From an uncultured Candidatus Saccharibacteria bacterium (GTDB taxonomy: Bacteria; Patescibacteriota; Saccharimonadia; Saccharimonadales; JACDBH01), in the NCBI GenBank assembly GCA_964644965.1, contig CAZXYN010000005.1:9759-73758 (forward strand): a stretch of 64,000 nt of DNA. Direction: 5' to 3'. The notes beneath the pieces were generated by a model. It did not search any database. It had not been told where the DNA came from and saw only the letters and a list, made by a program, of their open reading frames with translations. Positions 2,092 through 61,884 of the stretch are shown piece after piece. The translations under genes were made by a program, and so were the position numbers. Numbering within the stretch: the first letter of the stretch is position 1; each line of letters opens with the position of its first letter.

Positions 2092-5019
2092 CTAATTACC
2101 TGTTGTTGACCAGTGCCAATTCTCTGAGGGCAGGTTTTTTAAGCCATAGCTAGCGGCGTTAGCAACCAACCAATCCCAACAAACCCTTGTGGACGGTCTT
2201 TCTCTTAAGTTAATAAAGCCAATACCATTACAAATTAAGTCTATAGCTAAACCTCTCTCGTGAAAAGATGTGCCTGGTTTGGCTGTTGGCGGGCTACAGC
2301 TGTTGGCGGACATCTCATATATGGCGTAGTTGCTTGTACCACAGTTTTGTCGCCGTAATGCAATCTGTCTTGCGGGGTCGCGCCAACCTCCACCGGTAAA
2401 AGTAATCCCACTAGCTTTTGCGTCATTTACTAGTCTCTCAATAGTGCCAGCAATACAATTATGAACCAATATACCTTGCACATCAGTTATCTCTTCTCTA
2501 CCAACTGGCGCTGATGGGCATTGACTCGTATCAAGGGATCCGGATGTATTAGTGTTTGCCGGTTGAGTGCCAAGACCAAGTTCAGTACACGCCTGCGCAT
2601 TATCATCATAGCAGTCCATCGTTCTGGCTATAGAGTCGTCCATAACGAAAAGAGCAGTTCGGATCCAATCGGGACTTAGATCGCCACAATTAGCCCCATT
2701 ATACTCGTTAGACAAAGGGTTTATCTCTTTGTCTAAAAGCGTTGTCCGTAACTGGCTTCCTTCACCCACTATTTCTACACCGAAACAATTCTTTACCCTG
2801 TCTTCGTCTATGCTACCTCTGTTATCAATAACCCACTTTACGTTTTCAGGGGAGTCATAGTTTGGATCATCGACAATGCTAGCAGGCATTGATACCAACG
2901 GGAATCCCCAGTCGTAAGTCGCTGATTGAGCATGGGCACTAGGCGATGCAATGGATAAGAGGTTGGATACTGTGCTAATAGGAGACTTTAATAGACCGGG
3001 GACTATTGAGCCGAAACTATTGCCAACACCAACGAGTCCGTGGCTCAGGGCCGGACGCATTGTGGCCATTGCGAGAGACCGTTTTTCCTGGGGGTTGAAT
3101 AATCTGTCGAACAAGTCCTTTTGTCTGAACTCCGCAATTTCTTGCTCGTTGATCTGGTTTAGTAGTGCCGTCTCGTCGCCGCTACTTAAAGGTACCCCAC
3201 CCATCGCAGCAGCATTTATATTGCTAGACATTCTAGCTGCATACGCGAGGCAGTTTCCGTATGCCTCTGCGTTTAATACCTCGATATCTTCTGGTTTGTC
3301 GCTTTCACCCGAATCAAACTCCACACCACATACGTCGGTAACCCTGCCCCTTACCTGTCCCTCTACAACTTCACCGAGAATCCTACTTGCTGCATAAGAG
3401 ATGGTACCGGCCAGGACGGCCTGTGCAGCTACCCTGCCCACGGCTCCGGCTGTTGTGGTTCCACCGGTAACTACGCCCCCTACAACCCCTGCAACAGTAA
3501 GCGTAGCACCGGCCGCAAGGCCGACAACTCTAGCGACTGGATTGCACGCAAAATCAGAGACACCATCAGCAACATCAGCAGCAGTAGCCCCGTCGTATCC
3601 AAGAGCACTCACTAGGCCTGAAATGCTGCTGCCGGTTGTAGTGAAAGCAGATCTGGCACCAATATCTATATCCGTACCAACACCCGATCCTCCGTTCGTC
3701 AATGCGTTGACAGACTTCGCACCCCATACGCTACGTCCATCAGCATCTCTAAAGTCAGCTATCACGTCCCCTGCTAACTGGGCGGTGAGATTCTGTCCCG
3801 ACTGGAATTGTGATGCCGCACTTTGGGTTTGGATTGATCTTATCATGGCGGGTGTGACTATAGTTGCATAGTAGACACCTGGTACTATGCCCGCAATATC
3901 TTTGACCGTGCACATAACTCCCTGAATTGCAACTGCAGCCCCAGCCGTTTTCATTAGTCCTGACCCGGCCTTGCTTCTCAGGTCGCTGCGTGCACTGGAT
4001 CTTCTCTGGTCAACCTCAACACTCTTTCTGGATCTCTCTGCATCAGCCTGCTTCCTTTCGCGCCTTGCTAGCACGGCATTATCTATGCGTCGCCCAACCG
4101 ATTCGCTAGCTCGGGATACAGGGTGAAATAGACTCGGTAATCTCAATGTTTTGCTAAACAATCTTTTGTTCATTGATACGGCAACTTTAGGATTAAGCCT
4201 TACGGTCGCCCTTCCACCACCAGCGTGGTGTGCTAAACCTTTTTTGATATTGTCAAGTTCGCTACCCTTAAAGTCCGACAACCTAAAGCTAAGGGATGTG
4301 TCGGTGTTGCCGATAGTGCCCACGCGGACTTTTTCTGCATCAATTCCAAATGCCCTGGCTATGTTTAGGCGGGTGTGTGTTGGCGTAGGGCCTCTGAGGG
4401 GGGAGTTAGCAGGTGGGTCAAACGTGACCGTTACTCTAGAGTTTCCCGTTACTCGTCCTGTTGTCTCTGTAAGCTTTATACCATGCTGCTGATCTAGTCT
4501 ATCCAGCATTCCGCCAAATACCCTATTTTGAACTGTTCCCAGGCGCGAACGTGACAGCATAACCCTATCATCGGCGTTCTTAAACAGGGATCGGTAAAGC
4601 ATCCTGTTTATACGTCTGTTTATGATATTTGTGTGAGCGCTTTCGTGTTTACCCAAAGCAGCATCAAGTTGGAATACTTGCATTGGACCCGTCGTCAAGA
4701 TTGTGAGTGCTCCAAGGCCTCCGCCGATAACAGTTCCTACGATACTACCAATAACTACCTGTTTTTTAGTTACGCGGGAGCGGCTCTTTTTCTTCTTTTC
4801 ATCATCACGGAACGGGATTTCATCATCAGAATCTCCTGTCTTTTCATCCAGTTTGGCACGTTCGGCCATATCATCGGTGACGGCACGGTCTTCCATAGCC
4901 TGCTCCTCGGCAGGGTTAATACCAGTGATCTGATTTAGATCACCCGTTCTTTTATCAAGCTTATCAGCTTCAATTTCCTCTGGTCGAGTTTTGGTTTGTT
5001 GGTCGTCGTAGACTGCCAT
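2092..5019 (-). CDS. large membrane protein with C-terminal M15/VanY-type D-Ala-D-Ala peptidase domain, T4SS-associated
   Basis: 975 aa; acidic N-terminus, TM VVIGSIVGTVIGGGLGALTILTTG, Gly/Ala/Val-rich hydrophobic segment mid-protein; C-terminus has SFHERGLAID (SxHxxGxAxD) and ENWHWS motifs of VanY/M15 peptidases; directly abuts neighbouring genes. Confidence 0.8.
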   Translation of the reverse strand: MAVYDDQQTKTRPEEIEADKLDKRTGDLNQITGINPAEEQAMEDRAVTDDMAERAKLDEKTGDSDDEIPFRDDEKKKKSRSRVTKKQVVIGSIVGTVIGGGLGALTILTTGPMQVFQLDAALGKHESAHTNIINRRINRMLYRSLFKNADDRVMLSRSRLGTVQNRVFGGMLDRLDQQHGIKLTETTGRVTGNSRVTVTFDPPANSPLRGPTPTHTRLNIARAFGIDAEKVRVGTIGNTDTSLSFRLSDFKGSELDNIKKGLAHHAGGGRATVRLNPKVAVSMNKRLFSKTLRLPSLFHPVSRASESVGRRIDNAVLARRERKQADAERSRKSVEVDQRRSSARSDLRSKAGSGLMKTAGAAVAIQGVMCTVKDIAGIVPGVYYATIVTPAMIRSIQTQSAASQFQSGQNLTAQLAGDVIADFRDADGRSVWGAKSVNALTNGGSGVGTDIDIGARSAFTTTGSSISGLVSALGYDGATAADVADGVSDFACNPVARVVGLAAGATLTVAGVVGGVVTGGTTTAGAVGRVAAQAVLAGTISYAASRILGEVVEGQVRGRVTDVCGVEFDSGESDKPEDIEVLNAEAYGNCLAYAARMSSNINAAAMGGVPLSSGDETALLNQINEQEIAEFRQKDLFDRLFNPQEKRSLAMATMRPALSHGLVGVGNSFGSIVPGLLKSPISTVSNLLSIASPSAHAQSATYDWGFPLVSMPASIVDDPNYDSPENVKWVIDNRGSIDEDRVKNCFGVEIVGEGSQLRTTLLDKEINPLSNEYNGANCGDLSPDWIRTALFVMDDSIARTMDCYDDNAQACTELGLGTQPANTNTSGSLDTSQCPSAPVGREEITDVQGILVHNCIAGTIERLVNDAKASGITFTGGGWRDPARQIALRRQNCGTSNYAIYEMSANSCSPPTAKPGTSFHERGLAIDLICNGIGFINLRERPSTRVCWDWLVANAASYGLKNLPSENWHWSTTGN

Positions 5020-16880: not shown

Positions 16881-16931
16881 GTCGAGGTTTCTAAGGTTTA
16901 GAGAACTTCGATTTTCTTGACCGTGTCCTGT

Positions 16932-17019
16932 CTAGTAGTAGAGCTTCGTGTAATTTTGCTCTTAAGCAAAATAAAACACCCCAGTTTCCTGGGGGTGTTC
17001 ACGAAGCCTCACTACCGGG
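16932..17019 (-). repeat. hairpin repeat element, copy 1 (GTAGTGAG/TCTACTAC family)
   Basis: Arms CTAGTAGTAGAGCTTCGTG (16932-16950) and CACGAAGCCTCACTACCGGG (17000-17019) are inverted repeats enclosing two internal hairpins (TTTTGCT/AGCAAAA; AACACCCCAG/CTGGGGGTGTT followed by T-run on minus strand); 11 nt downstream of hsp20 stop. Confidence 0.75.
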
Positions 17020-17717: not shown

Positions 17718-18392
17718 ATGCGTTTGATCGAACAATTTTTCAGAATCGTCGCACCATCCAACTGTTTGATGTGTCGTACCGAAGGTAGCTTACTGTGCGC
17801 CTGGTGTATTGAAGATGCTTTGCCGCAGCATCAGCCTCGTTGCTATCGCTGCAACGCATTGACCTCAGAGAGTTCAATCTGTGCAAACTGCAAGCGAAAA
17901 ACAGCTCTCAGAAGTCTGTGGATACGTACCGAATACTCTGATACAGCCAAGAACCTGGTTCATATGATGAAATTTAAGTACTCAGGCGAAGCAGCTGACA
18001 TTCTGGCCACCGAACTGGTGAACACAATCCCTGCCCTGTCGCCAGAAACAATCGTTGTAGCAGTACCTACAATCACATCGCATGTACGTCAGCGCGGATT
18101 TGACCACACCAAACGCATTGTTGCACGGATTTCTGCCATGACCCCATATTCTAGTCAGCAAGTGCTTGTTCGGATGGGTCAGCATCGCCAGGTTGGTTCT
18201 AGTCGAAAGCAGCGTTTGACCGAAGTAACTAATAGTTTTCGGGTCAAAAGCCCATTTGTGGTCAAAAATTGCCCCGTTGTGCTGGTAGATGACGTGCTGA
18301 CCACTGGTGCAACGCTTGAGGCAGCAGCCAAGGCTCTACGACAAGCTGGCGCTTCGCGGGTAGACGCGGTGGTTTTCGCCCGCGCCCGGTAG
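17718..18392 (+). CDS. comF: ComF-family phosphoribosyltransferase-domain protein
   Basis: N-terminal Cys pairs (CLMCRT...CAWC, CYRC...CANC) and C-terminal PRTase motif VVLVDDVLTTGATL; ATG 17718 chosen, TTG 17697/GTG 17700 are in-frame alternatives. Confidence 0.8.
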   Translation: MRLIEQFFRIVAPSNCLMCRTEGSLLCAWCIEDALPQHQPRCYRCNALTSESSICANCKRKTALRSLWIRTEYSDTAKNLVHMMKFKYSGEAADILATELVNTIPALSPETIVVAVPTITSHVRQRGFDHTKRIVARISAMTPYSSQQVLVRMGQHRQVGSSRKQRLTEVTNSFRVKSPFVVKNCPVVLVDDVLTTGATLEAAAKALRQAGASRVDAVVFARAR

Positions 18393-18458
18393 TAGACTTT
18401 CGTGCTGCCAGCAAAAGCTGGCTATTGGATGGGAGGTTCACGAAAGCTCACTACTGGG
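18385..18458. repeat. hairpin repeat element, copy 2 (GTAGTGAG/TCTACTAC family)
   Basis: Arms CCCGGTAGTAGACTTTCGTG (18385-18404) and CACGAAAGCTCACTACTGGG (18439-18458); internal hairpin GCCAGC-aaaa-GCTGGC; left arm contains the comF stop codon TAG 18390-18392. Confidence 0.75.
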
Positions 18459-18669: not shown

Positions 18670-18762
18670 GGAGAGGTACCCAAGTGGCTGAAGGGGACGG
18701 TTTGCTAAATCGTTAGTGGGGCGAGAGTTCCAGCGAGGGTTCGAATCCCTCTCTCTCCGCCA
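18670..18762 (+). tRNA. tRNA-Ser (anticodon GCU), CCA encoded
   Basis: Hand-folded: acceptor GGAGAGG/TCTCTCC, anticodon stem ACGGT/ATCGT with loop TTGCTAA, long variable arm, T-arm GAGGG-TTCGAAT-CCCTC, 3' GCCA. Confidence 0.85.
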
Positions 18763-18927
18763 ATACGAATATTTAATAGCTCGTACGCTTTTAAATATTC
18801 GTATATGGTTCGGCAGATAGGGGTGAGAACGGGAAGTTCGGGGGACTTCCCCGCACCTTGCCCGTGCTATGCCAGTGGCATAGCTAAGGGGCTGGCTGGC
18901 AAAAGTAAGTTTTTTTGCCGCCAGAGG

Positions 18928-18949
18928 CGAATCCCTCTCTCTCCGCCAA
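18928..18949 (+). repeat. 22-bp echo of tRNA-Ser 3' end
   Basis: CGAATCCCTCTCTCTCCGCCAA is identical to 18742-18763 (T-loop through CCA+A of tRNA-Ser GCU; the first 21 bp, through CCA, also match tRNA-Ser GGA at 46074-46094). Confidence 0.85.
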
Positions 18950-33744: not shown

Positions 33745-35055
33745 ATGAATATTAGGAAGACGGTGAAGAAGTTTATACCTAAGGGGTTATTCCCGTTGAT
33801 TGAGCCGTATGGCCACAAGGCTGAGGCGGTGCTGTTTCACGGTCTGAACGGTTTTCCGGCTCGGCGAATGAAAGTTATCGGTGTGACCGGGACAAACGGC
33901 AAGACGACGACCAGCTTCATGATTCACCGCATGCTAACAGAGGCAGGCTATAAAGTGGGGCTGATGAGCACGGTGGCTTACGGTATTGGTGACGAAATAC
34001 ATCCACAGGTGCACCACATGACTAATGTGGCAGTGCCGGAGCTAGTACGCCGACTAAAATGGATGCGTGACCAAGGGGTAGAATGGCTAGTGCTGGAGAC
34101 GACAAGCCACGCGCTGGCGCAGAACCGCGTGTGGGGCGTGCCGTATTCTATCGCCGTCATGACCAATGTGACGCATGAGCACCTGGATATGCATGGTACG
34201 TTTGAGCGTTATCGTGATGCCAAGCGGCGGCTGTTCCAGATAACAAACCGCAACAAAAAGGGCATGCAGGTGGGAATTATCAATGCTGAGGACCCAAGCG
34301 CTACGCTGTTTAAACGCGATATCAAAAACGCCATAACCTATGGTATCGACAAGGGTGAAATGCAAGCGCGCGACGTCAAATTGACACCAGATGGCTCTAA
34401 ATACACGGTGTTTTATAAGGGCAAAGAACTGAAGATTGAGTGTTTTATACCGGGCAAGTTTAATGTATCTAACAGCTTGGCGGCGGCGGCTGTCGGTGGC
34501 GTGGTGGGGCTGAGCGGCGAGCAGATAGAGCAGGGGATTGCGGCGCTAAAGCGGGTCGAAGGGCGGATGGATCCGATTGATGAGGGGCAGAGCTACAGTG
34601 TAATTGTGGATTTTGCTCATACGCCGGATAGTTTCGAGAAGTTATTCAAAGATCTGCGGCCAGTGGTGAAGGGCAAGCTGATTGTGATGTTTGGCAGTGC
34701 TGGGAGGCGCGACGAGGCCAAGCGGGCTATCCAGGGTGAGTTAGCTGGGAAGTATGCCGATGAGGTCGTGGTGACCGAAGAGGATGATCGTGATATCGAT
34801 GGCCAGGAAATTATGAATATGATTGCCGAGGGGGCTGAAAAGGCTGGCAAAGTGCGCGATAAGAATTTGTTTTTGGTACATGATCGTACACAGGCTATAG
34901 AATTTGCGGTTTCACGTGCATCGGCTAAAGACGACACGGTGTTGCTACTAGGAAAAGGTCACGAGAAGACCATAGAGCGAGCTGATGGTGAGCATGATTG
35001 GGACGAAATTTCCGTTGTGCGCAAGGCACTACGGAAATTGGAATCTGGAAGTTAG
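33745..35055 (+). CDS. murE: Mur ligase family protein (MurE-like, short N-terminus)
   Basis: GVTGTNGKTTT P-loop, HEHLDMHGTFERYRDAKRRLF, DFAHTPDS, C-terminal VVTEEDDRD; TTG 33727 alternative start. Confidence 0.75.
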   Translation: MNIRKTVKKFIPKGLFPLIEPYGHKAEAVLFHGLNGFPARRMKVIGVTGTNGKTTTSFMIHRMLTEAGYKVGLMSTVAYGIGDEIHPQVHHMTNVAVPELVRRLKWMRDQGVEWLVLETTSHALAQNRVWGVPYSIAVMTNVTHEHLDMHGTFERYRDAKRRLFQITNRNKKGMQVGIINAEDPSATLFKRDIKNAITYGIDKGEMQARDVKLTPDGSKYTVFYKGKELKIECFIPGKFNVSNSLAAAAVGGVVGLSGEQIEQGIAALKRVEGRMDPIDEGQSYSVIVDFAHTPDSFEKLFKDLRPVVKGKLIVMFGSAGRRDEAKRAIQGELAGKYADEVVVTEEDDRDIDGQEIMNMIAEGAEKAGKVRDKNLFLVHDRTQAIEFAVSRASAKDDTVLLLGKGHEKTIERADGEHDWDEISVVRKALRKLESGS

Positions 35056-35464
35056 AATCTGGAATCTGGAATGGAAGACATAAAATCATTCAAAAACCTA
35101 AGGGTCTGGCAGGCAAGTTATGAACTTGGTCTTGCCGTCTATCGCCATACAAAGCATTTTCCCAAGGAAGAACAGTTCGCGTTAATATCACAGATGAGGC
35201 GAGCAGTTGTATCTGTGTCTTCCAATATCGCTGAAGGTTATGGCCGCCGGCAGCCCAAAGACAAAGAGCATTTCTATACGATGGCTTGTGGCTCCCTGTA
35301 TGAATTGCAAAGCCAGCTGGAGTTTTCAAAAGGGCTTGGTTATCTAACAGATGTGCAGCACTCAGAATTATCTGAGCAAGCTGTTTCTTGTGCCAAGCAG
35401 CTCAACGCATTATTGAGCAGGCATCGGAGCTGAAATATTCTAAATTCTAACTTCCAGATTCCAA
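35038..35464 (+). mobile_element. four-helix-bundle (IVS-protein) cassette bounded by perfect 21-bp terminal inverted repeats
   Basis: TTGGAATCTGGAAGTTAGAAT (35038-35058) and its exact reverse complement ATTCTAACTTCCAGATTCCAA (35444-35464); left repeat contains the murE-like stop codon (35053-35055). Confidence 0.7.
35071..35433 (+). CDS. four-helix-bundle protein (23S rRNA intervening-sequence protein family)
   Basis: 120 aa; VSSNIAEGYGRRQPKDKEHFYTMACGSLYELQSQL family pattern. Confidence 0.85.
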   Translation: MEDIKSFKNLRVWQASYELGLAVYRHTKHFPKEEQFALISQMRRAVVSVSSNIAEGYGRRQPKDKEHFYTMACGSLYELQSQLEFSKGLGYLTDVQHSELSEQAVSCAKQLNALLSRHRS

Positions 35465-35467
35465 CTT

Positions 35468-36382
35468 CTATACGTTGTCGAGTGTGAGTGTGGTGCAGCG
35501 GATGTAGCCGCCGCCTTTGCCGAGCTCTTGGATGATAGGGGTGACGACCTTCAGACCCTTGTCCTGCAGATGCTGCTTGAGCTGGGGGGCGAAGGCGCTC
35601 ATGATGACGGTGTGGCCGGTGCTGATGAGATTGCAGGCAAAGGCCTTTTTGGCTTCGCGCGTGTTGACTTCTATTTTTTCCATCGGAAGCTCGCGTATGC
35701 GAGCCCGTGATCGGCGGGTGAAAGCAGCAGGGCACCAGGCTATCAGGCCGTCCTGTGTGTCGGTGTGCGGTCGGATGACTGCTAGGGCTAGATCGATGTC
35801 GTAGTAGTAGCTGTCTGGCCAGCCAGAGGCTTTGTTTATCACTGGTAGGCCAAGGCCAGAGAGGCTGCGCTTGGGCTTGGTTTGGAGGCTAATAACTTCG
35901 TAGCCGAGGGTGTCAGCTAGAAACTTATGGGCTTGCTCGTCGGTGCGGTAGACAGAGCCTGCGAACAGGTAGTTACCACAGGGTAGGGCATCGCCCTGGC
36001 CGCTGAAGCGAAGGTTGTCAGGCACCGTGAAAATTTCGAAGCCCAGTTTTTTTAGCTGCTCCTGTGCATAGTCTTCTTCGCCTTTTCGGGCATTGGGCAG
36101 ACGGGACATGACGGCTTTGTTGCCGCGGGTCAGCGCCCAGTTGGCGGTGTAAACACCGTCTTGACAACCAGCTGGCGGGTCAACTTGGACTACTTCGACG
36201 CGTGCTGCCCCTAGTGCGTCAGCGATACTTTGGTGCTCGGCGCGGGCCTTCTGGGCGTCGATTTTAATGCTGCTGTCCATGTGGGCATTGATGGCTTGGT
36301 CATCGCTGAAATATTCGGTACCCGACATCAGGACGCGCGCGTTGAACAAGGGGGTTCTAGGATTATCCATGCTGGTAGCCAT
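35468..36382 (-). CDS. amidinotransferase-fold enzyme (DDAH/arginine deiminase-like)
   Basis: 304 aa; C-terminal GGGYIRCTTLTL with catalytic-type Cys; overall guanidino-modifying enzyme look; exact substrate not assignable. Confidence 0.6.
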   Translation of the reverse strand: MATSMDNPRTPLFNARVLMSGTEYFSDDQAINAHMDSSIKIDAQKARAEHQSIADALGAARVEVVQVDPPAGCQDGVYTANWALTRGNKAVMSRLPNARKGEEDYAQEQLKKLGFEIFTVPDNLRFSGQGDALPCGNYLFAGSVYRTDEQAHKFLADTLGYEVISLQTKPKRSLSGLGLPVINKASGWPDSYYYDIDLALAVIRPHTDTQDGLIAWCPAAFTRRSRARIRELPMEKIEVNTREAKKAFACNLISTGHTVIMSAFAPQLKQHLQDKGLKVVTPIIQELGKGGGYIRCTTLTLDNV

Positions 36383-39995: not shown

Positions 39996-40077
39996 CCCAG
40001 TAGTGAGCCTTCGTGTCCATCCGCCAAAGGCGGATGCATGGTTCGCCTGGCGAACCGCACGAAGATCTACTACTGGG
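39996..40077 (+). repeat. hairpin repeat element, copy 3 (GTAGTGAG/TCTACTAC family)
   Basis: Arms CCCAGTAGTGAGCCTTCGTG (39996-40015) and CACGAAGATCTACTACTGGG (40058-40077); two internal hairpins TCCGCC-aaa-GGCGGA and GGTTCGCC-tg-GCGAACC; 33 nt after groEL stop. Confidence 0.8.
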
Positions 40078-40100: not shown

Positions 40101-40169
40101 TTGAGAGGGGGTATCCCCCTCTCAACGCGCCGGGAAGCGAATGAATCGCTTCATCGGGCTGCTCTCCCC
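40101..40169 (+). repeat. 69-bp two-hairpin intergenic repeat, copy 1
   Basis: TTGAGAGGGGGTATCCCCCTCTCAACGCGCCGGGAAGCGAATGAATCGCTTCATCGGGCTGCTCTCCCC; about 90 percent identical to 45785-45853. Confidence 0.8.
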
Positions 40170-45784: not shown

Positions 45785-45853
45785 TTGAGAGGGGAACATC
45801 CCCTCTCAACGCGCCGAGAAGCGAATAAATCGCTTCGTCGGGCTGCTCTCCCC
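45785..45853 (+). repeat. 69-bp two-hairpin intergenic repeat, copy 2
   Basis: TTGAGAGGGGAACATCCCCTCTCAACGCGCCGAGAAGCGAATAAATCGCTTCGTCGGGCTGCTCTCCCC. Confidence 0.8.
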
Positions 45854-48454: not shown

Positions 48455-48580
48455 ACTCCGTATTATACACTAATCTAAATATTTAAATATGTAAATACTT
48501 AAATATATATTGCCAGACGCTGACTTCTGTAAATAATCAGGTGATAACATCAAAATAGCGTATAATACCACCAGATATGG

Positions 48581-48903
48581 ATCATGTAGTGAGCCCTTGA
48601 TGAGCATTATGTTCTACGTATATATACTTCAATCAGAAGATAAAAAGCGACTTTATATTGGTAAGACCCAAAATCTTAATAGACGGGTTAAAAAACATAA
48701 TGCCGAACAAAATGCATCTAACAAAGCTTATACGCCTTGGACTTTGATTTTCTACGAGGCATACACTAACTATGATGATGCAACTAGACGTGAAAAATAT
48801 CTTAAAACTACTCAAGGACACCAGGCTATCAGAAGAATGCTCAGCAAACATTTAGAGAAGTATAATGAGATGCATTTTGAGCATCAAGGATCTACTACGT
48901 GAT
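48581..48903 (+). mobile_element. GIY-YIG gene cassette with short terminal inverted repeats, copy 1
   Basis: Left ATCATGTAGTGAG (48581-48593), right TCTACTACGTGAT (48891-48903); paralogous to 61193-61514 at DNA and protein level including non-coding left end. Confidence 0.6.
48609..48902 (+). CDS. GIY-YIG nuclease superfamily protein (UPF0213-like)
   Basis: MFYVYILQSEDKKRLYIGKTQNLNRRVKKHN...REKYLKT; start set by alignment with paralog at 61220. Confidence 0.85.
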   Translation: MFYVYILQSEDKKRLYIGKTQNLNRRVKKHNAEQNASNKAYTPWTLIFYEAYTNYDDATRREKYLKTTQGHQAIRRMLSKHLEKYNEMHFEHQGSTT

Positions 48904-50557
48904 GGAACAGATGAGAGAGTTGATCGCTAACCGAATAAGCCAGCTGTACGGCCAAGAAGTGCCAATAGTGTTTACGCGTCCGGACGAACAGTTCGGCGAT
49001 TTTTCGACCAATGTTGCCATGCAGCTTGCTAGTAAGGTTGGCTCTAATCCGCGAGAGATTGCCCAATCTATTATCGACAATCTGTCTCACGACGATATTG
49101 CCAAGGCCGAAGTCGCTGGTCCAGGATTTATCAACCTGACTCTAAGCGACCAAGCACTTACAGACCTAATAGCTGCTGAACCCACCAAAATTTTTGCCGA
49201 AGAATCAGTTGTGATTGAGACCAATAACCCGAATCCGTTCAAGGCCATGCACATTGGTCATGCCTTTAACGCAATCGTGGCTGATACGCTTGCCAATCTG
49301 ATAGAAGCGGCCGGTGCACACACCTACCGCGTCAGCTATCATGGTGATGTTGGTCTTCATGTTGGCAAGAGTATGTATAGTTTGCTGCGCTACGTAGACG
49401 GCGAGCCAAACAAGCTGCTAGACGTTCCAGAGGAAGAGCGCAATAGCTTCATGTCGCGGATGTATGCCGAGGGTTCTGCTGCTTATAAAGAGGACGGTTC
49501 GCTGGACAGCGGAGCCAGGGCAGAGATTGATGAGCTTGCCAGGCAATCATTTACCCGCGAGGATGCTACCTATGCTGCTGTCTATGAAATTTGTAGAGAT
49601 TGGAGCTTTGAACAGATTGATACAAATGTTGCGCGGCTAGGTAACAAGCCAGTGGAGCGTAGGTTCCTAGAGAGTGATGCCGAGCATAGAGGCGTAGAAA
49701 TTGTCAAAAAGAATACCCCAGCTGTGTTCAAAGAAAGCGATGGTGCATTAATATTCGAGGGTAGTAAACATGGCACGTTCGACAATGCTTTTGTTAGCGC
49801 ACGCGGTACAGGGCTGTATGCTTCGCGTGATCTTGGTTTAATCCAGCTCAAGAATGAACAGTATCACCCAGATAAGAGTTATATCGTCACAGCAGAGGAG
49901 CAGCGGGATTATTTCAAGGGAGTAATTGCGGCTGCTGAATTATGCATGCCTGATCAAAAGGGCGTCACCATCAACATCCCAACCGGCACAGTCAAGCTAA
50001 CAACTGGCAAGATGAGCTCGCGTGATGGCGACGTGGTAGAGATTGGCTGGTTGTTTGACCAAGTAGCTAGCGCCATCAAAGAGCGCGGTGGTTCGGCCAG
50101 TGATCAAGACATTGCCGGCGCACTGCGCTATCAGTTCTTGCAGGTGCGGATTGGTAGTGACGTGGTGTTTGACATCGAAAATTCGGTTAGTATTCACGGC
50201 AACTCCGGACCGTATTTACAGTACGCACACGCAAGGGCTCGCAGTATTTTGCGCAAGGCGCAAGAAGTTGAAAGTGAAAAGTTGAAAGTCGAAAGTTTGC
50301 AAAAGGCCGAACGCAGTCTGGTCCGAAAAATCGGCGAGTACAACGAGGTTGTAGGGAGAGCAGCTGACGAGCTAATGCCGCATCACATCTGTCATTATCT
50401 GCATGAGCTGTCTCAGAATTTTAATTCGTTCTACGAACACAACCGAGTAATTGGTGACGCGCGCGAGGGTACTCGTCTAAAAATCGTAGAGCTTTATGCA
50501 GACACACTAAAGCGCGGTCTAGAGCTACTAGGTATTAACGCCCCAGAACAAATGTAG
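48899..50557 (+). CDS. argS: arginine--tRNA ligase
   Basis: 552 aa; HIGH-type MHIGHAFN, anticodon-binding C-terminus ending in M; start GTGATG overlaps GIY-YIG stop. Confidence 0.95.
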   Translation: MMEQMRELIANRISQLYGQEVPIVFTRPDEQFGDFSTNVAMQLASKVGSNPREIAQSIIDNLSHDDIAKAEVAGPGFINLTLSDQALTDLIAAEPTKIFAEESVVIETNNPNPFKAMHIGHAFNAIVADTLANLIEAAGAHTYRVSYHGDVGLHVGKSMYSLLRYVDGEPNKLLDVPEEERNSFMSRMYAEGSAAYKEDGSLDSGARAEIDELARQSFTREDATYAAVYEICRDWSFEQIDTNVARLGNKPVERRFLESDAEHRGVEIVKKNTPAVFKESDGALIFEGSKHGTFDNAFVSARGTGLYASRDLGLIQLKNEQYHPDKSYIVTAEEQRDYFKGVIAAAELCMPDQKGVTINIPTGTVKLTTGKMSSRDGDVVEIGWLFDQVASAIKERGGSASDQDIAGALRYQFLQVRIGSDVVFDIENSVSIHGNSGPYLQYAHARARSILRKAQEVESEKLKVESLQKAERSLVRKIGEYNEVVGRAADELMPHHICHYLHELSQNFNSFYEHNRVIGDAREGTRLKIVELYADTLKRGLELLGINAPEQM

Positions 50558-52165: not shown

Positions 52166-53385
52166 ATAAGCCATTCTACAAAAGGCGTCCATCTAAGCGG
52201 ACGCTTGTTCTTCTTGGTCTTGGCGGGATTATTATAGTGATTATTCTGTTACTGCTATTTCTGTTTGTACAAACCTCAGATGCACCGGGTCCAGAAGAGA
52301 ATAAATCTGCAGAGTCTAGCCAACAAACAGAGCCAAAGACCTCGATTACTATGTTGGCCACAGGTGACTGGATTGCTCATGATGTAATCAACGAGGTTGC
52401 AGGCAGCAGCGGTGAGTTTAATTACGCCAGTATGACCGAACCAATGCGGCCATATTTTGAACAGACAGACATAAATTTTTGTAATCTGGCGACACCCGCT
52501 GGCGGCGTTCAGCATGGAATTAGCGGATACCCGGTGTTCAATGCGCCGCTAGAGTGGAACCGCGATATGCATGGCCTAGGTTGTAACCTAATTAACACCG
52601 GCACGAACCACACCAATGACAAGGGTCAAGCAGTGATCACATCAGAACTCAATGACTGGGACGGCAAAGAAAATGTGCTCGCTCATGCTGGTGCTAACCG
52701 TAGCATAGACGAGATGAATACAGTTCGATACTTTGAGCGTGATGGTGTAAAGTTTGCGTTCTTGTCCTACAGTACGTACTCCAACTCGCCAAACCCCGAG
52801 GTCTACAGCCTGACTCGCTTTACCGAACCGCTAGTCACAACCCAGATGACAGAAGCACGGGCAAATGCCGATGTGGTGATTGTTAGCATGCGCTGGGGCA
52901 CAGAATATTCATCTGGAATAAGTGCTGCTCAGGAGCTCGCTGCACAGAAACTAGCAGGGCTTGGTGCTGATATCGTGCTTGGTCATGGTCAGCATGTGCT
53001 GGGCCCAGTAAAACAGCTGCCACGGGCTGACGGTGGTGAAACAACCGTCTGGTATGGACTAGGCAATTTCCTGAATGCACAGCTAGAGACAGAGGCGCTA
53101 ACTGGCTGTGTGGCGACTTTTGATATTGATATTGCCAGCAAAAAGGTCAGTGGTTCTGGCTGTCTGCCGTTTTACCAACACTATGAATGGACGGCTGCAG
53201 ACAAAGCCGCCGGGCGTTTGTTGACACGAGGTAACTTCCTGATCATGCCGCTATATAATGCAGCCGAATACCTGGCGCGACCGGACGCTCACCTAGAAAC
53301 GACAGTCGAAGAGCAGATGAATCGCATCAGTGGCATAGTGAACACCTACACCGAGATCCCATTGCGAAACGCCGACGATCTATAA
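52135..53385 (+). CDS. CapA-family (PGA_cap metallophosphatase-like) membrane-anchored protein
   Basis: TM LVLLGLGGIIIVIILLLLFLFV; MLATGDWIAHD, NLATP, NTGTNHTNDKG, GHGQHVLGP motifs; start uncertain (GTG 52135 or GTG 52162). Confidence 0.7.
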   Translation: MEETEETQEVNKPFYKRRPSKRTLVLLGLGGIIIVIILLLLFLFVQTSDAPGPEENKSAESSQQTEPKTSITMLATGDWIAHDVINEVAGSSGEFNYASMTEPMRPYFEQTDINFCNLATPAGGVQHGISGYPVFNAPLEWNRDMHGLGCNLINTGTNHTNDKGQAVITSELNDWDGKENVLAHAGANRSIDEMNTVRYFERDGVKFAFLSYSTYSNSPNPEVYSLTRFTEPLVTTQMTEARANADVVIVSMRWGTEYSSGISAAQELAAQKLAGLGADIVLGHGQHVLGPVKQLPRADGGETTVWYGLGNFLNAQLETEALTGCVATFDIDIASKKVSGSGCLPFYQHYEWTAADKAAGRLLTRGNFLIMPLYNAAEYLARPDAHLETTVEEQMNRISGIVNTYTEIPLRNADDL

Positions 53386-53533
53386 TTGACAAATCTACGC
53401 GTACAAGGCGTACAAGGTTCGACCTTGTACAAACTTGTACAAAAGTGAACACCTACACCGTCGTACAAGGTCGAACCTTGTACAGAGAACCTTGTACAGA
53501 GAAATCCCGGTAAGAAACGCCGACGATTTATAA
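53386..53533. repeat. GTACAAGG/CCTTGTAC palindromic mini-repeats plus diverged duplicate of the capA-like 3' end
   Basis: GTGAACACCTACACCG (53338-53353) recurs at 53445-53460; ATCCC..GAAACGCCGACGAT.TATAA recurs at 53504-53533; two hairpins GTACAAGG-ttcga-CCTTGTAC and GTACAAGG-tcgaa-CCTTGTAC; tandem AACCTTGTACAGAG x2. Confidence 0.85.
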
Positions 53534-61082: not shown

Positions 61083-61192
61083 CTGAAACTCCTATTCAGT
61101 TACTCGAATTACCTAAAATTATACACCCGTGGTACTAAAAAGTCTAATTGTCAAACCTATGAATAAATTATCTGTATAATAGGGAGCAATGA

Positions 61193-61514
61193 ATCATGTA
61201 GTGAGGTTCTGATTGCATTATGTTCTATGTCTATATTCTTCATTCAGATGTAAGGCAGAGACTTTACATTGGGAAGACAAATAATCTCAAGCGTCGAGTT
61301 AAAGAACATAATGACGGTCAAAATTTATCTACGAAAGCCTACAGACCCTGGACTCTGGCGTTTTATGAAGCTTACATTAATGCTGATGATGCAAGTCGTC
61401 GGGAAAAGTATCTGAAAACAACTCAGGGTCGGCAAACAATACGAAAGATGCTACGCTCTCACTTGGAAAACTACAAAAGTATAAATTTTGAGTATCAGGA
61501 CTCTACTACATGAT
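61193..61514 (+). mobile_element. GIY-YIG gene cassette with short terminal inverted repeats, copy 2
   Basis: Left ATCATGTAGTGAG (61193-61205), right CTCTACTACATGAT (61501-61514); 10-bp perfect core ATCATGTAGT/ACTACATGAT. Confidence 0.6.
61220..61513 (+). CDS. GIY-YIG nuclease superfamily protein (UPF0213-like), paralog
   Basis: MFYVYILHSDVRQRLYIGKTNNLKRRVKEHN...REKYLKT; roughly two-thirds identical by eye to 48609-48902 product. Confidence 0.85.
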   Translation: MFYVYILHSDVRQRLYIGKTNNLKRRVKEHNDGQNLSTKAYRPWTLAFYEAYINADDASRREKYLKTTQGRQTIRKMLRSHLENYKSINFEYQDSTT

Positions 61515-61884
61515 GAACCACAAAGCTGTAGAAGAATATATATTGACCATGCCAAATTCGTGGCTGGATTACCCATTTGGTAAAGAGGCAGCAGTATACA
61601 AAGTTCGAAGTTCTAAGGACAAAGGACAAAGTGAGGGTAAGATGTTTGCGCTGATTGCCGAAGGATCTAAGCCTGTACGAATCAGCCTGAAATGTGATCC
61701 GCAACTCGCCAAATTACTTCGTGAAAAGTACGAGACAGTCATGGAAGGCTACCATCTGAACAAGAAACACTGGAATACAATCCTGCTGACAGGGCAGCTG
61801 CCGTGGGAAGAGGTTCAAGGACTTATTTTGCATAGCTACATCTTGGTCACAGAGGGTAGCGACACTCACCAACCTACTGCGTAA
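61510..61884 (+). CDS. MmcQ/YjbR-family protein
   Basis: YPFGKEAAVYKV...KMFALI...ISLKCDPQLAKLLREKY...GYHLNKKHWNTI. Confidence 0.75.
   Translation: MMNHKAVEEYILTMPNSWLDYPFGKEAAVYKVRSSKDKGQSEGKMFALIAEGSKPVRISLKCDPQLAKLLREKYETVMEGYHLNKKHWNTILLTGQLPWEEVQGLILHSYILVTEGSDTHQPTA

Follow-up and report, generated by a model that had tools for sequence, protein, structure and literature searches.

GIY-YIG nucleases of the Ssn family (cd10448) are single-stranded DNA (ssDNA) enzymes of about 94 amino acids (aa), and their genes are flanked by cognate hairpin repeats known as NTS/SRM (Chenal et al. 2025, Nat Commun, PMC11893778). These repeats are also present in many dispersed copies, and the authors noted that the NTS-ssnA-NTS layout is similar to that of an insertion sequence (IS), with no mobility shown (PMC11893778). 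GIY-YIG open reading frames (ORFs) have also been described in rRNA genes of bacteria of the candidate phyla radiation (CPR), in insertions that belong to neither the group I nor the group II introns (PMC11270868). Here we analyze a 64-kb stretch of a contig of an uncultured Candidatus Saccharibacteria bacterium (CAZXYN010000005.1), referred to below as the window, in which a gene for a 97-aa GIY-YIG nuclease is part of a cassette of ~320 bp at positions 61194-61513, at the very start of a yjbR/mmcQ-like gene. Comparative sequence analysis indicates that this cassette and a sister copy at 48.6 kb belong to a compact (~300-320 bp) IS-like family of Patescibacteria, the sole gene of which encodes a single-domain GIY-YIG nuclease. 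These comparisons give good support to an element that has been inserted, spreads horizontally and has a conserved folded architecture. As a whole, the observations are probably best explained by an IS-like GIY-YIG cassette that inserts at start codons and is mobilized by way of an ssDNA fold. We found no earlier account of this architecture in the literature on GIY-YIG proteins, Patescibacteria, hairpins and IS; the closest papers are the two cited above.

By analogy, the Ssn family is the closest described system, a likeness that rests on protein size, domain and layout. Both systems have a single-domain GIY-YIG protein of ~94-97 aa, a gene bracketed by its own cognate inverted repeat, a directional repeat, and dispersed ORF-less copies of the repeat (three in the 64-kb window). 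However, the cassette gene lies inside one split hairpin (arm-gene-arm), while an Ssn gene lies between two complete hairpins. The cassette repeat, CCNNGTAGT[GA/AG]A..., is unrelated in sequence, and the SRM pattern HGTCWYN(0-2)YYVSBRHN(0-5)WNVSBRGN(0-2)RNCYNB gave 0 matches on both strands of the window and of nine loci, three of them from Patescibacteria (L005, L016, L020). Cassettes also add a tandem mismatch in the stem and two helices within the coding sequence, and they show 4-bp target duplications, empty sites and placement at host start codons, all of which set them apart from the Ssn layout.

Insertion into the start of yjbR

All features of the two cassettes described here are on the forward strand. 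The ends proposed in a first-pass annotation of the window, ATCATGTAGTGAG at 61193-61205 and CTCTACTACATGAT at 61501-61514, are both present when the sequence is read directly. The exact 13-mer ATCATGTAGTGAG occurs twice in the window, at 61193 and 48581, in both cases upstream of a 97-aa GIY-YIG ORF (61220-61513 and 48609-48902). These two ORFs are 70% identical in protein and ~72% in DNA. The same annotation held that the DNA similarity covers non-coding sequence upstream of the gene, and formal alignment of the two copies agrees, at a level far above chance. Similarity begins at ATG[G/A]ATCATGTAGTGAG, upstream of the nuclease ATG, runs through a shared leader (ATG[G/A]ATCATGTAGTGAG....TGAT..GCATTATG) into the ORF, and terminates directly past ..CTACTAC[A/G]TGATG. 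A perfect inverted core of 10 bp had also been proposed; an inverted repeat is indeed present, but it is longer (~20-21 nt, 61194-61213 / 61494-61513) and imperfect, with an internal 2-nt mismatch. The left arm is made up of an outer part TCAT+GTAGT (61194-61202), GA (61203-61204) and nine inner nucleotides GGTTCTGAT (61205-61213). The right arm mirrors it with inner ATCAGGACT (61494-61502), CT (61503-61504) and outer ACTAC+ATGA (61505-61513), and its final base is the A of the yjbR ATG.

Insert-free sites are known in syntenic relatives for both window copies, at yjbR and at argS. L085 shares the neighbors of the window, with yjbR preceded by the gene of a large Big-domain surface protein on the opposite strand, and its empty site reads ...gtctaattgtcaaa..TATAATagaaggacagaATGCAACACAAAGTCGTAGAAGAATAT; yjbR is likewise empty in L086 and L087 (TATAAT-N-ATGGATCATAAA...). 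The occupied site in the window reads ...gtctaattgtcaaa..TATAATagggagcaA[TGAA] TCATGTAGTGAGG...ACTACATGA [TGAA]CCACAAAGCTGTAGAAGAATAT. The two TGAA copies, at 61190-61193 and 61514-61517, were assigned from the sequence, from junction alignment with the empty sites and from the 4-mer statistics given below. This duplication overlaps the yjbR start codon, and A61189 together with the left TGAA represents the original yjbR ATG. At argS, L082 has a synteny identical to the window (Flavodoxin_2, HTH_20, argS, mscL) and an empty site reading aatagcgTATAATataacagatATGGAACAGAT, while the occupied site in the window reads aatagcgTATAATaccaccagatA[TGGA]TCATG...CGTGA[TGGA]ACAGAT. The sister cassette at this site spans 48582-48902, with TGGA at 48578-48581 and 48903-48906, and argS is also insert-free in L081, L083 and L084. 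At both loci, the host ATG context is exactly restored in the empty relatives. The window copies alone would fit equally well with a duplication of 5 bp (ATGAA), or with one of 2 bp and a perfect 10-bp terminal inverted repeat (TIR); the family-wide data favor 4 bp. Comparison with the empty alleles thus shows that 61194-61513 was inserted into the opening codons of yjbR, downstream of the host -10 box, with duplication of a 4-bp target. An empty yjbR site would be expected to read TATAAT...ATGAACCAC, and a head-to-tail junction of the element would read ...ACTACATGA joined to TCATGTAGT....

Two details of the first-pass annotation had to be revised. The TATAAT at 61175-61180 had been listed with the left end, 12 nt upstream of it; since the insert-free L085, L086 and L087 also have TATAAT, 6-11 nt ahead of the yjbR ATG, it is the -10 box of the host yjbR promoter and lies outside the cassette. 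Its likeness to the sequence in front of the 48.6-kb copy is therefore a likeness of two host promoters and not cassette sequence. The downstream gene, in turn, had been described as beginning with ATGATG and overlapping the nuclease gene by 4 nt. Orthologues of yjbR begin with MNHK, MDHK or MQHK, and the window protein reads MNHKAVEEY from 61513, so the true start is the second ATG, at 61513. The gene accordingly extends over 61513-61884 (Pfam YjbR, E=5e-25), and its start shares 1 nt with the GIY-YIG stop (TGATG), the same arrangement as at argS.

A family of cassettes in Patescibacteria

For a survey of the family, 80 genome loci and 80 metagenome loci were fetched; the metagenome scan gave mainly distant members in place of the close subfamily. 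Nearly all homologues of the nuclease are from Patescibacteria/Saccharibacteria. A pair-finder requiring an ORF between arms of the form NNNN-GTAGT-[GA/AG]-9 nt returned 72 elements. The outer nine and inner nine arm positions are complementary in these elements, and the inner sequence varies freely by locus yet matches its partner. GA on one arm faces AG on the other in 71 of the 72, giving a tandem G·T + A·C mismatch, and the arm that bears GA switches relative to the ORF (33 vs 26 elements). Identical 4-mers stand directly outside the arms in 51/72 elements, compared to a permutation mean of 9.8 (maximum 19) and to 3/71 in a control shifted 4 nt outward. The most common are TATG (19) and TGGA (14), followed by TGAA (5), ATGA (5), TTGA (2) and others. 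ATG is present at both junctions in 52 of the elements, and a long co-oriented ORF begins 0-6 nt past the right end in 54. The host genes are mutually unrelated and often essential: they encode DnaG, RmuC, BipA, AlaRS (twice), ArgRS (twice) and MurC, and further RecO, TsaE, an EngB-like GTPase, a ComM-like protein, glycosyltransferases and radical-SAM enzymes.

Some loci carry clustered or tandem elements (L008 ~3290-3390, L052 ~3300, L113 418-1800, L062 1240-1368 and 4911-5035). An ORF-less copy can directly trail an ORF-carrying copy in such clusters, and several miniatures per contig are possible. At alaS in L026 (3001-3311), a frameshift has left a nuclease ORF of 64 aa and the left ATG is mutated to AAG, with arms and host ATG intact; this copy looks like a stage of element decay. 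Homologous nucleases with 48-50% identity were also detected outside Patescibacteria, in L069, L070 and L077 (Verrucomicrobia and other metagenome-assembled genomes), where they have the classical repeat-gene-repeat layout with a different, GC-rich hairpin (CCGCGTAAA...TTTACGCGG).

The nuclease gene (61220-61513) matches Pfam GIY-YIG (PF01541) with E=2.8e-17 and 63.2 bits, compared to a cut-off of 22.6, and the 48.6-kb ORF with E=8.3e-19. Residues Y3, Y5, Y16, G18, R26, N31 and E50 are invariant among 35 homologues. GIY-YIG is the only domain of the 97-aa protein, which has no extra DNA-binding domain. The AlphaFold2 (AF2) model has a pLDDT of 87.7, with 55 for the last 10 residues, and its beta-beta-alpha-beta-alpha core matches GIY-YIG structures. 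Nearest in Foldseek are At-HIGLE and Slx1 (E=4.6e-4 and 8.9e-4), also UPF0213, with I-TevI much further away (E=0.26). A sequence search of PDB gave weak SLX1/UPF0213 matches only, and NCBIfam gave weak sub-threshold matches only, including one to TIGR01453. In the Saccharibacteria subfamily, the nuclease ORF is extended across the helix strand P3 described below and the right arm, so that these encode its final ~10 residues and a C-terminus ..FEYQGSTT directly before the stop codon. The low confidence of this tail in the model fits a read-through of the DNA element.

A conserved fold that extends into the coding sequence

Folds were computed on 61189-61525 with both RNA and DNA parameters, and the minimum free energy (MFE) and centroid structures all contain a closing stem and two internal long-range helices. 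An unbiased column-pair helix scan of 67 aligned elements recovers the same three helices. P1 is formed by the two arms paired together, P2 by GATTATGTTCT, which includes the nuclease start codon, with AGAACATAATC (E-H-N codons), and P3 by TTAAATTTTT (L-N-F-S codons) with AAAAATTTAA (C-terminal codons). In the 61-kb cassette, the helix scan and covariation counts place the P2 strands at 61216-61226 (CATTATGTTCT, holding the GIY-YIG start codon) and 61303-61313 (AGAACATAATG, K-E-H-N codons). The P3 strands are found by the same evidence at 61319-61328 (CAAAATTTAT, Q-N-L-S codons) and 61481-61490 (ATAAATTTTG, I-N-F-E codons), both supported also by an echo in the amino acids.

In alignment A3, 95.3% of the cells are paired, compared to 37-48% in slid controls. 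Both sides change in 26 pairs (controls 9-15) and in 318 cells (controls 19-68), and the covariation score is 0.356 (controls 0.097 or less). Nine of the ten P3 pairs change on both sides, and a compensatory change TT->GC separates the two window copies (CAAAATTTATCT/ATAAATTTTG vs CAAAATGCATCT/AGATGCATTTTG at 48.6 kb). The effect is visible in the protein as well: in a set of 61 subfamily proteins, the residue at position 36 predicts that at position 90 (L-N/S 10/10, V-H 15/19, A-H 17/19, T-Y 9/9), exactly the pairing that codon complementarity in P3 demands. These alignments show that the arms and the two helices inside the coding sequence covary as the stems of a three-way junction, in which the tandem G·T/A·C mismatch is a constant feature. 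A ribozyme or intron (hammerhead with a CUGAUGA-like core, bulge-helix-bulge, group I) was also considered and dropped by inspection, as the linkers are unconserved and there is too little RNA.

The window additionally contains three ORF-less miniatures, each of which has the GA/AG mismatch and, inside it, a pair of small hairpins. S3 (39996-40077, forward strand) has the same arms as the cassettes and an ssDNA fold with z=-9.3. S1 (16931-17019) and S2 (18385-18458) lie on the reverse strand and have the opposite mismatch polarity; the outer arm of S1 is degenerate, and its ssDNA fold has z=-7.5. As ssDNA, S1 and S3 fold into three-way junctions made of the closing stem and the two hairpins. 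When related loci were scanned together with the window, 18 ORF-less matches were obtained, namely S2, S3 and 16 from the related loci. The mismatch rule is obeyed by 17 of the 18, and identical flanking 4-mers were found in 9/17. The window miniatures occur in both orientations, in intergenic/3' or convergent regions. Rfam searches of the whole window at the gathering and E<=5 thresholds gave no match on the arms or the ORF-less copies.

One of the miniatures is located directly behind groEL, and the GTAGTAG core of another contains the stop codon of the upstream gene. Just downstream of S3 lies one copy (40101-40169) of a 69-nt direct repeat, the other being at 45785-45853; the two are 88% identical (TTGAGAGGGG..CCCCTCTCAACGCGCCGGGAAGCGAATGAATCGCTTC..), and the repeat contains two hairpins and is without an Rfam match.

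DNA or RNA as the functional form

The three helices could in principle be formed in DNA or in RNA. Functional RNA helices accept G·U far more readily than A·C. Outside the GA/AG mismatch, G·T and A·C are equally common in the family alignment (60 vs 55 cells), and the excess of G·U over A·C expected of an RNA-only structure was looked for in these cells and not found. The mismatch is found in either polarity with respect to the transcribed strand, the ORF-less copies lie either way round, and SsnA binds ssDNA hairpins but neither RNA nor double-stranded DNA (dsDNA) (PMC11893778). For these reasons folded ssDNA is favored as the probable functional form.

The main competing explanation is that the helices act in mRNA, where they would tune the expression of the nuclease or the host gene or process the transcript. 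P1 could sequester the host start codon and P2 that of the nuclease, or P1 could be a site at which RNase III cuts to free the host mRNA. The RNA fold does hold P1, P2 and P3 (z=-4.0), with the nuclease ATG covered by P2 and the host ATG by P1. Moreover, the non-intron rRNA insertions with GIY-YIG ORFs (PMC11270868) would need excision at the RNA level, and these CPR insertions may represent the same cassette type. We nevertheless consider this explanation rather unlikely, given the balance of G·T and A·C, the switching polarity of the mismatch, and ORF-less copies in both orientations within convergent or 3' intergenic regions. An RNA function would also leave the target duplications and empty sites unexplained. 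An extra mRNA role for P1 and P2 alongside the DNA fold may exist.

Horizontal spread and alternative origins

L088 carries a cassette at exactly the same argS position as the 48.6-kb window copy (W48). The two elements are 90% identical in DNA, with a third-codon-position identity of 0.78 and the same codon at 78% of identical residues, while the corresponding values for the adjacent argS are 69%, 0.43 and 45%. In addition, the window ArgRS is more similar to its counterpart in L082, where the site is empty (75% aa), than to the one in the occupied L088 (68%). The elements closest to the 61-kb copy are those of L001 and L089 (80-81% aa), both at dnaG, and yjbR on the contig of L001 has no insert. 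Because the argS copy is 90% identical where argS itself is only 69% identical, these comparisons indicate horizontal spread, together with a strong site preference and occasional site switching.

Mobility is at issue in a second alternative, according to which the cassette is a domesticated Ssn/repeat system as proposed for Neisseria, an immobile relic that modulates transformation and recombination. The nuclease would then cut incoming or replicating ssDNA at dispersed hairpins. Cutting of ssDNA at cognate hairpins and an effect on transformation are documented for Ssn (PMC11893778), and the ORF-less copies are dispersed in the window as this alternative would have it. The nuclease gene is also under purifying selection, with an identity between W48 and L088 of 0.95 at codon positions 1 and 2 and 0.78 at position 3. 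Domestication is unlikely, however, in view of the recent spread to the same site, the switching between dnaG and yjbR, the two divergent copies in one small genome, and target duplications that the ORF-less copies carry as well.

Occupation of the same site in divergent genomes, by an element far more similar than its flanks, is also what a free-standing homing endonuclease gene would produce. Such an enzyme would cut the empty dsDNA allele (e.g. TATAAT-N-ATGRA...), and its gene would be copied by recombinational repair. The resemblance to homing genes of the phage T4 seg/mob and I-TevI type includes the selfish intergenic location and the GIY-YIG domain itself, the classic homing endonuclease fold, and there is the weak TIGR01453 match. 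The 97-aa nuclease, though, lacks the sequence-specific DNA-binding domain of these enzymes, and in fold it resembles SLX1/UPF0213 more than I-TevI. No co-conversion tract beyond ~11 nt is seen in the flanks, close copies are found at unrelated host genes, and target duplications, inverted ends and ORF-less derivatives (miniatures) are foreign to homing genes. We regard homing as improbable on these grounds.

The view of the first-pass annotation that this is a cassette and not simple paralogy is borne out by the empty sites, the family-wide inverted ends, the 4-bp repeats and an element that outconserves its host flank; ordinary paralogues with a conserved 5' leader and no insertion are hardly credible despite 70% protein identity and similar leaders, since the whole unit is missing from syntenic relatives at both loci with the host ATG context exactly restored, the leader recurs at its 3' end as a reverse complement, and direct repeats flank it.

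Start codons and expression

The left host ATG opens a mini-ORF, MNHVVRF (7 sense codons plus stop, 61189-61212), which ends 7 nt before the nuclease ATG. Of 51 elements, 38 have a left-ATG frame that ends at most 20 nt ahead of the nuclease ATG (mode 7 nt), runs over it or is fused to it in frame. A -10-like TAnnnT is located 4-10 nt upstream of the left ATG in 20 of the 27 scanned loci with a left ATG. TATAAT is found only 6-11 nt upstream of the argS or yjbR ATG, with no Shine-Dalgarno spacing, in the window (48560-48580, 61175-61191), in L082 (2294-2312) and in L083-L087. The promoter contexts suggest that leaderless mRNAs may be common in this lineage.

If so, the host mRNA would be leaderless or nearly so, and the cassette could be translated as a chain: the host ATG would start the 7-codon mini-ORF, ribosomes would re-initiate on the nuclease gene, and re-initiation at TGATG would lead on to yjbR. 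The insertion would in this way be expressed while the host gene stays active.

Proposed mechanism

We propose that, most likely, the cassette's own nuclease mobilizes it via ssDNA. The substrate would be the folded ssDNA of the element, with the mismatch marking the active strand; the nuclease would cut the base of the stem, and host repair or ligation would finish excision and insertion. ORF-less copies could be mobilized in trans by the same nuclease. Occupancy of start codons could result from a short target preference (TGRA, TATG, ATGA) combined with the survival of only those insertions that are expressed and non-disruptive.

Parts of this scheme have counterparts in known systems. Similar to IS200/IS605 and REP/RAYT, the cassette is very small, has a 4-5 nt target preference and ORF-less hairpin derivatives that multiply in the genome, and its folded ssDNA ends are a likely substrate. 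IS200/IS605 elements, however, use an HUH Y1 transposase, have subterminal hairpins but no terminal inverted repeats, and make no target duplication. The only ORF of the cassette, by contrast, is GIY-YIG, for which a covalent intermediate is not expected; the cassette ends are true terminal inverted repeats able to pair with one another, and they are flanked by a 4-bp duplication. SLX1/At-HIGLE proteins give the best structural match to the predicted nuclease; these enzymes cut branched DNA, and the element is predicted to fold into a branched (three-way) form. SLX1 enzymes, however, are larger proteins of cellular repair that have partner domains, and they are not encoded inside their own substrate. 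Integron attC sites likewise have imperfect inverted repeats with conserved unpaired bases that give strand polarity, and miniature inverted-repeat transposable elements (MITEs) are likewise short non-autonomous derivatives with target duplications. The cassette differs from both in having no integrase or DDE transposase and in carrying its gene within the folded site, not beside it. Classical TIR elements share the 20-21-bp terminal inverted repeats, the 4-bp duplication (here in 51/72) and the empty sites; in contrast to them, the cassette encodes no DDE, serine or tyrosine transposase domain and has room for 97 codons only.

Several points weigh against the mobile-element interpretation or parts of it. 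No excision product, circle or polymorphism within a population was observed. GIY-YIG enzymes hydrolyze DNA and form no covalent intermediate, so the nuclease cannot carry out strand transfer by itself. Instead of transposition, homing or recombination could account for elements at the same site in different genomes. None of the ORF-less window copies is located at an ATG, and the link to start codons is partly a matter of ascertainment, the elements having been found via intact ORFs. In 13 of the 51 elements, the left-ATG frame runs into the nuclease gene in a different reading frame. Finally, the comparison of G·T with A·C is based on ~115 mismatch cells, some of which are possibly alignment errors.

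Other repeats in the window

The last 22 nt of tRNA-Ser(GCT) (18742-18763) are repeated exactly 186 nt downstream (18928-18949), which looks like an attachment-site duplication from an integrated or excised element. The region 53347-53533 contains a 30-nt inverted repeat (53410-53439 / 53454-53483, 87% complementary) flanked by a 39-nt direct repeat (53347, 53495), and inverted repeats of 32-40 nt, consisting of GGAATCTGGAA-type units ~340-370 nt apart, are found at 35034-35470.

Significance

The genomic evidence for movement consists of empty sites, target duplications and horizontal spread. If confirmed, it would turn the pairing of an Ssn nuclease with its hairpin into a mobile-element system and provide the first genomic case for its mobility. 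Nuclease and recognition-structure pairs of this type may also be useful as new ssDNA tools in biotechnology. Gene-start calls in Patescibacteria are affected as well: the call for yjbR here includes one Met too many, and the mini-ORF is fused to some of the called nuclease ORFs.

The elements also appear to carry two overlapping codes, in which the DNA fold limits codon choice so strongly that distant residues covary (L<->N, A/V<->H, T<->Y). Insertion at start codons would be a non-disruptive strategy that leaves essential genes such as argS, alaS, dnaG and murC working. A bolder possibility, which we offer tentatively, is that these are the smallest autonomous bacterial mobile elements (~300-320 bp) and a new class of transposon, moved by their own Ssn/SLX1-like nuclease, which would act on the element's ssDNA folded as a three-way junction with the tandem mismatch as a strand mark, and inserted in line at the 5' end of leaderless genes. 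If this is true, such an element would borrow the promoter and start codon of its host gene and hand translation back to it, even in essential genes.

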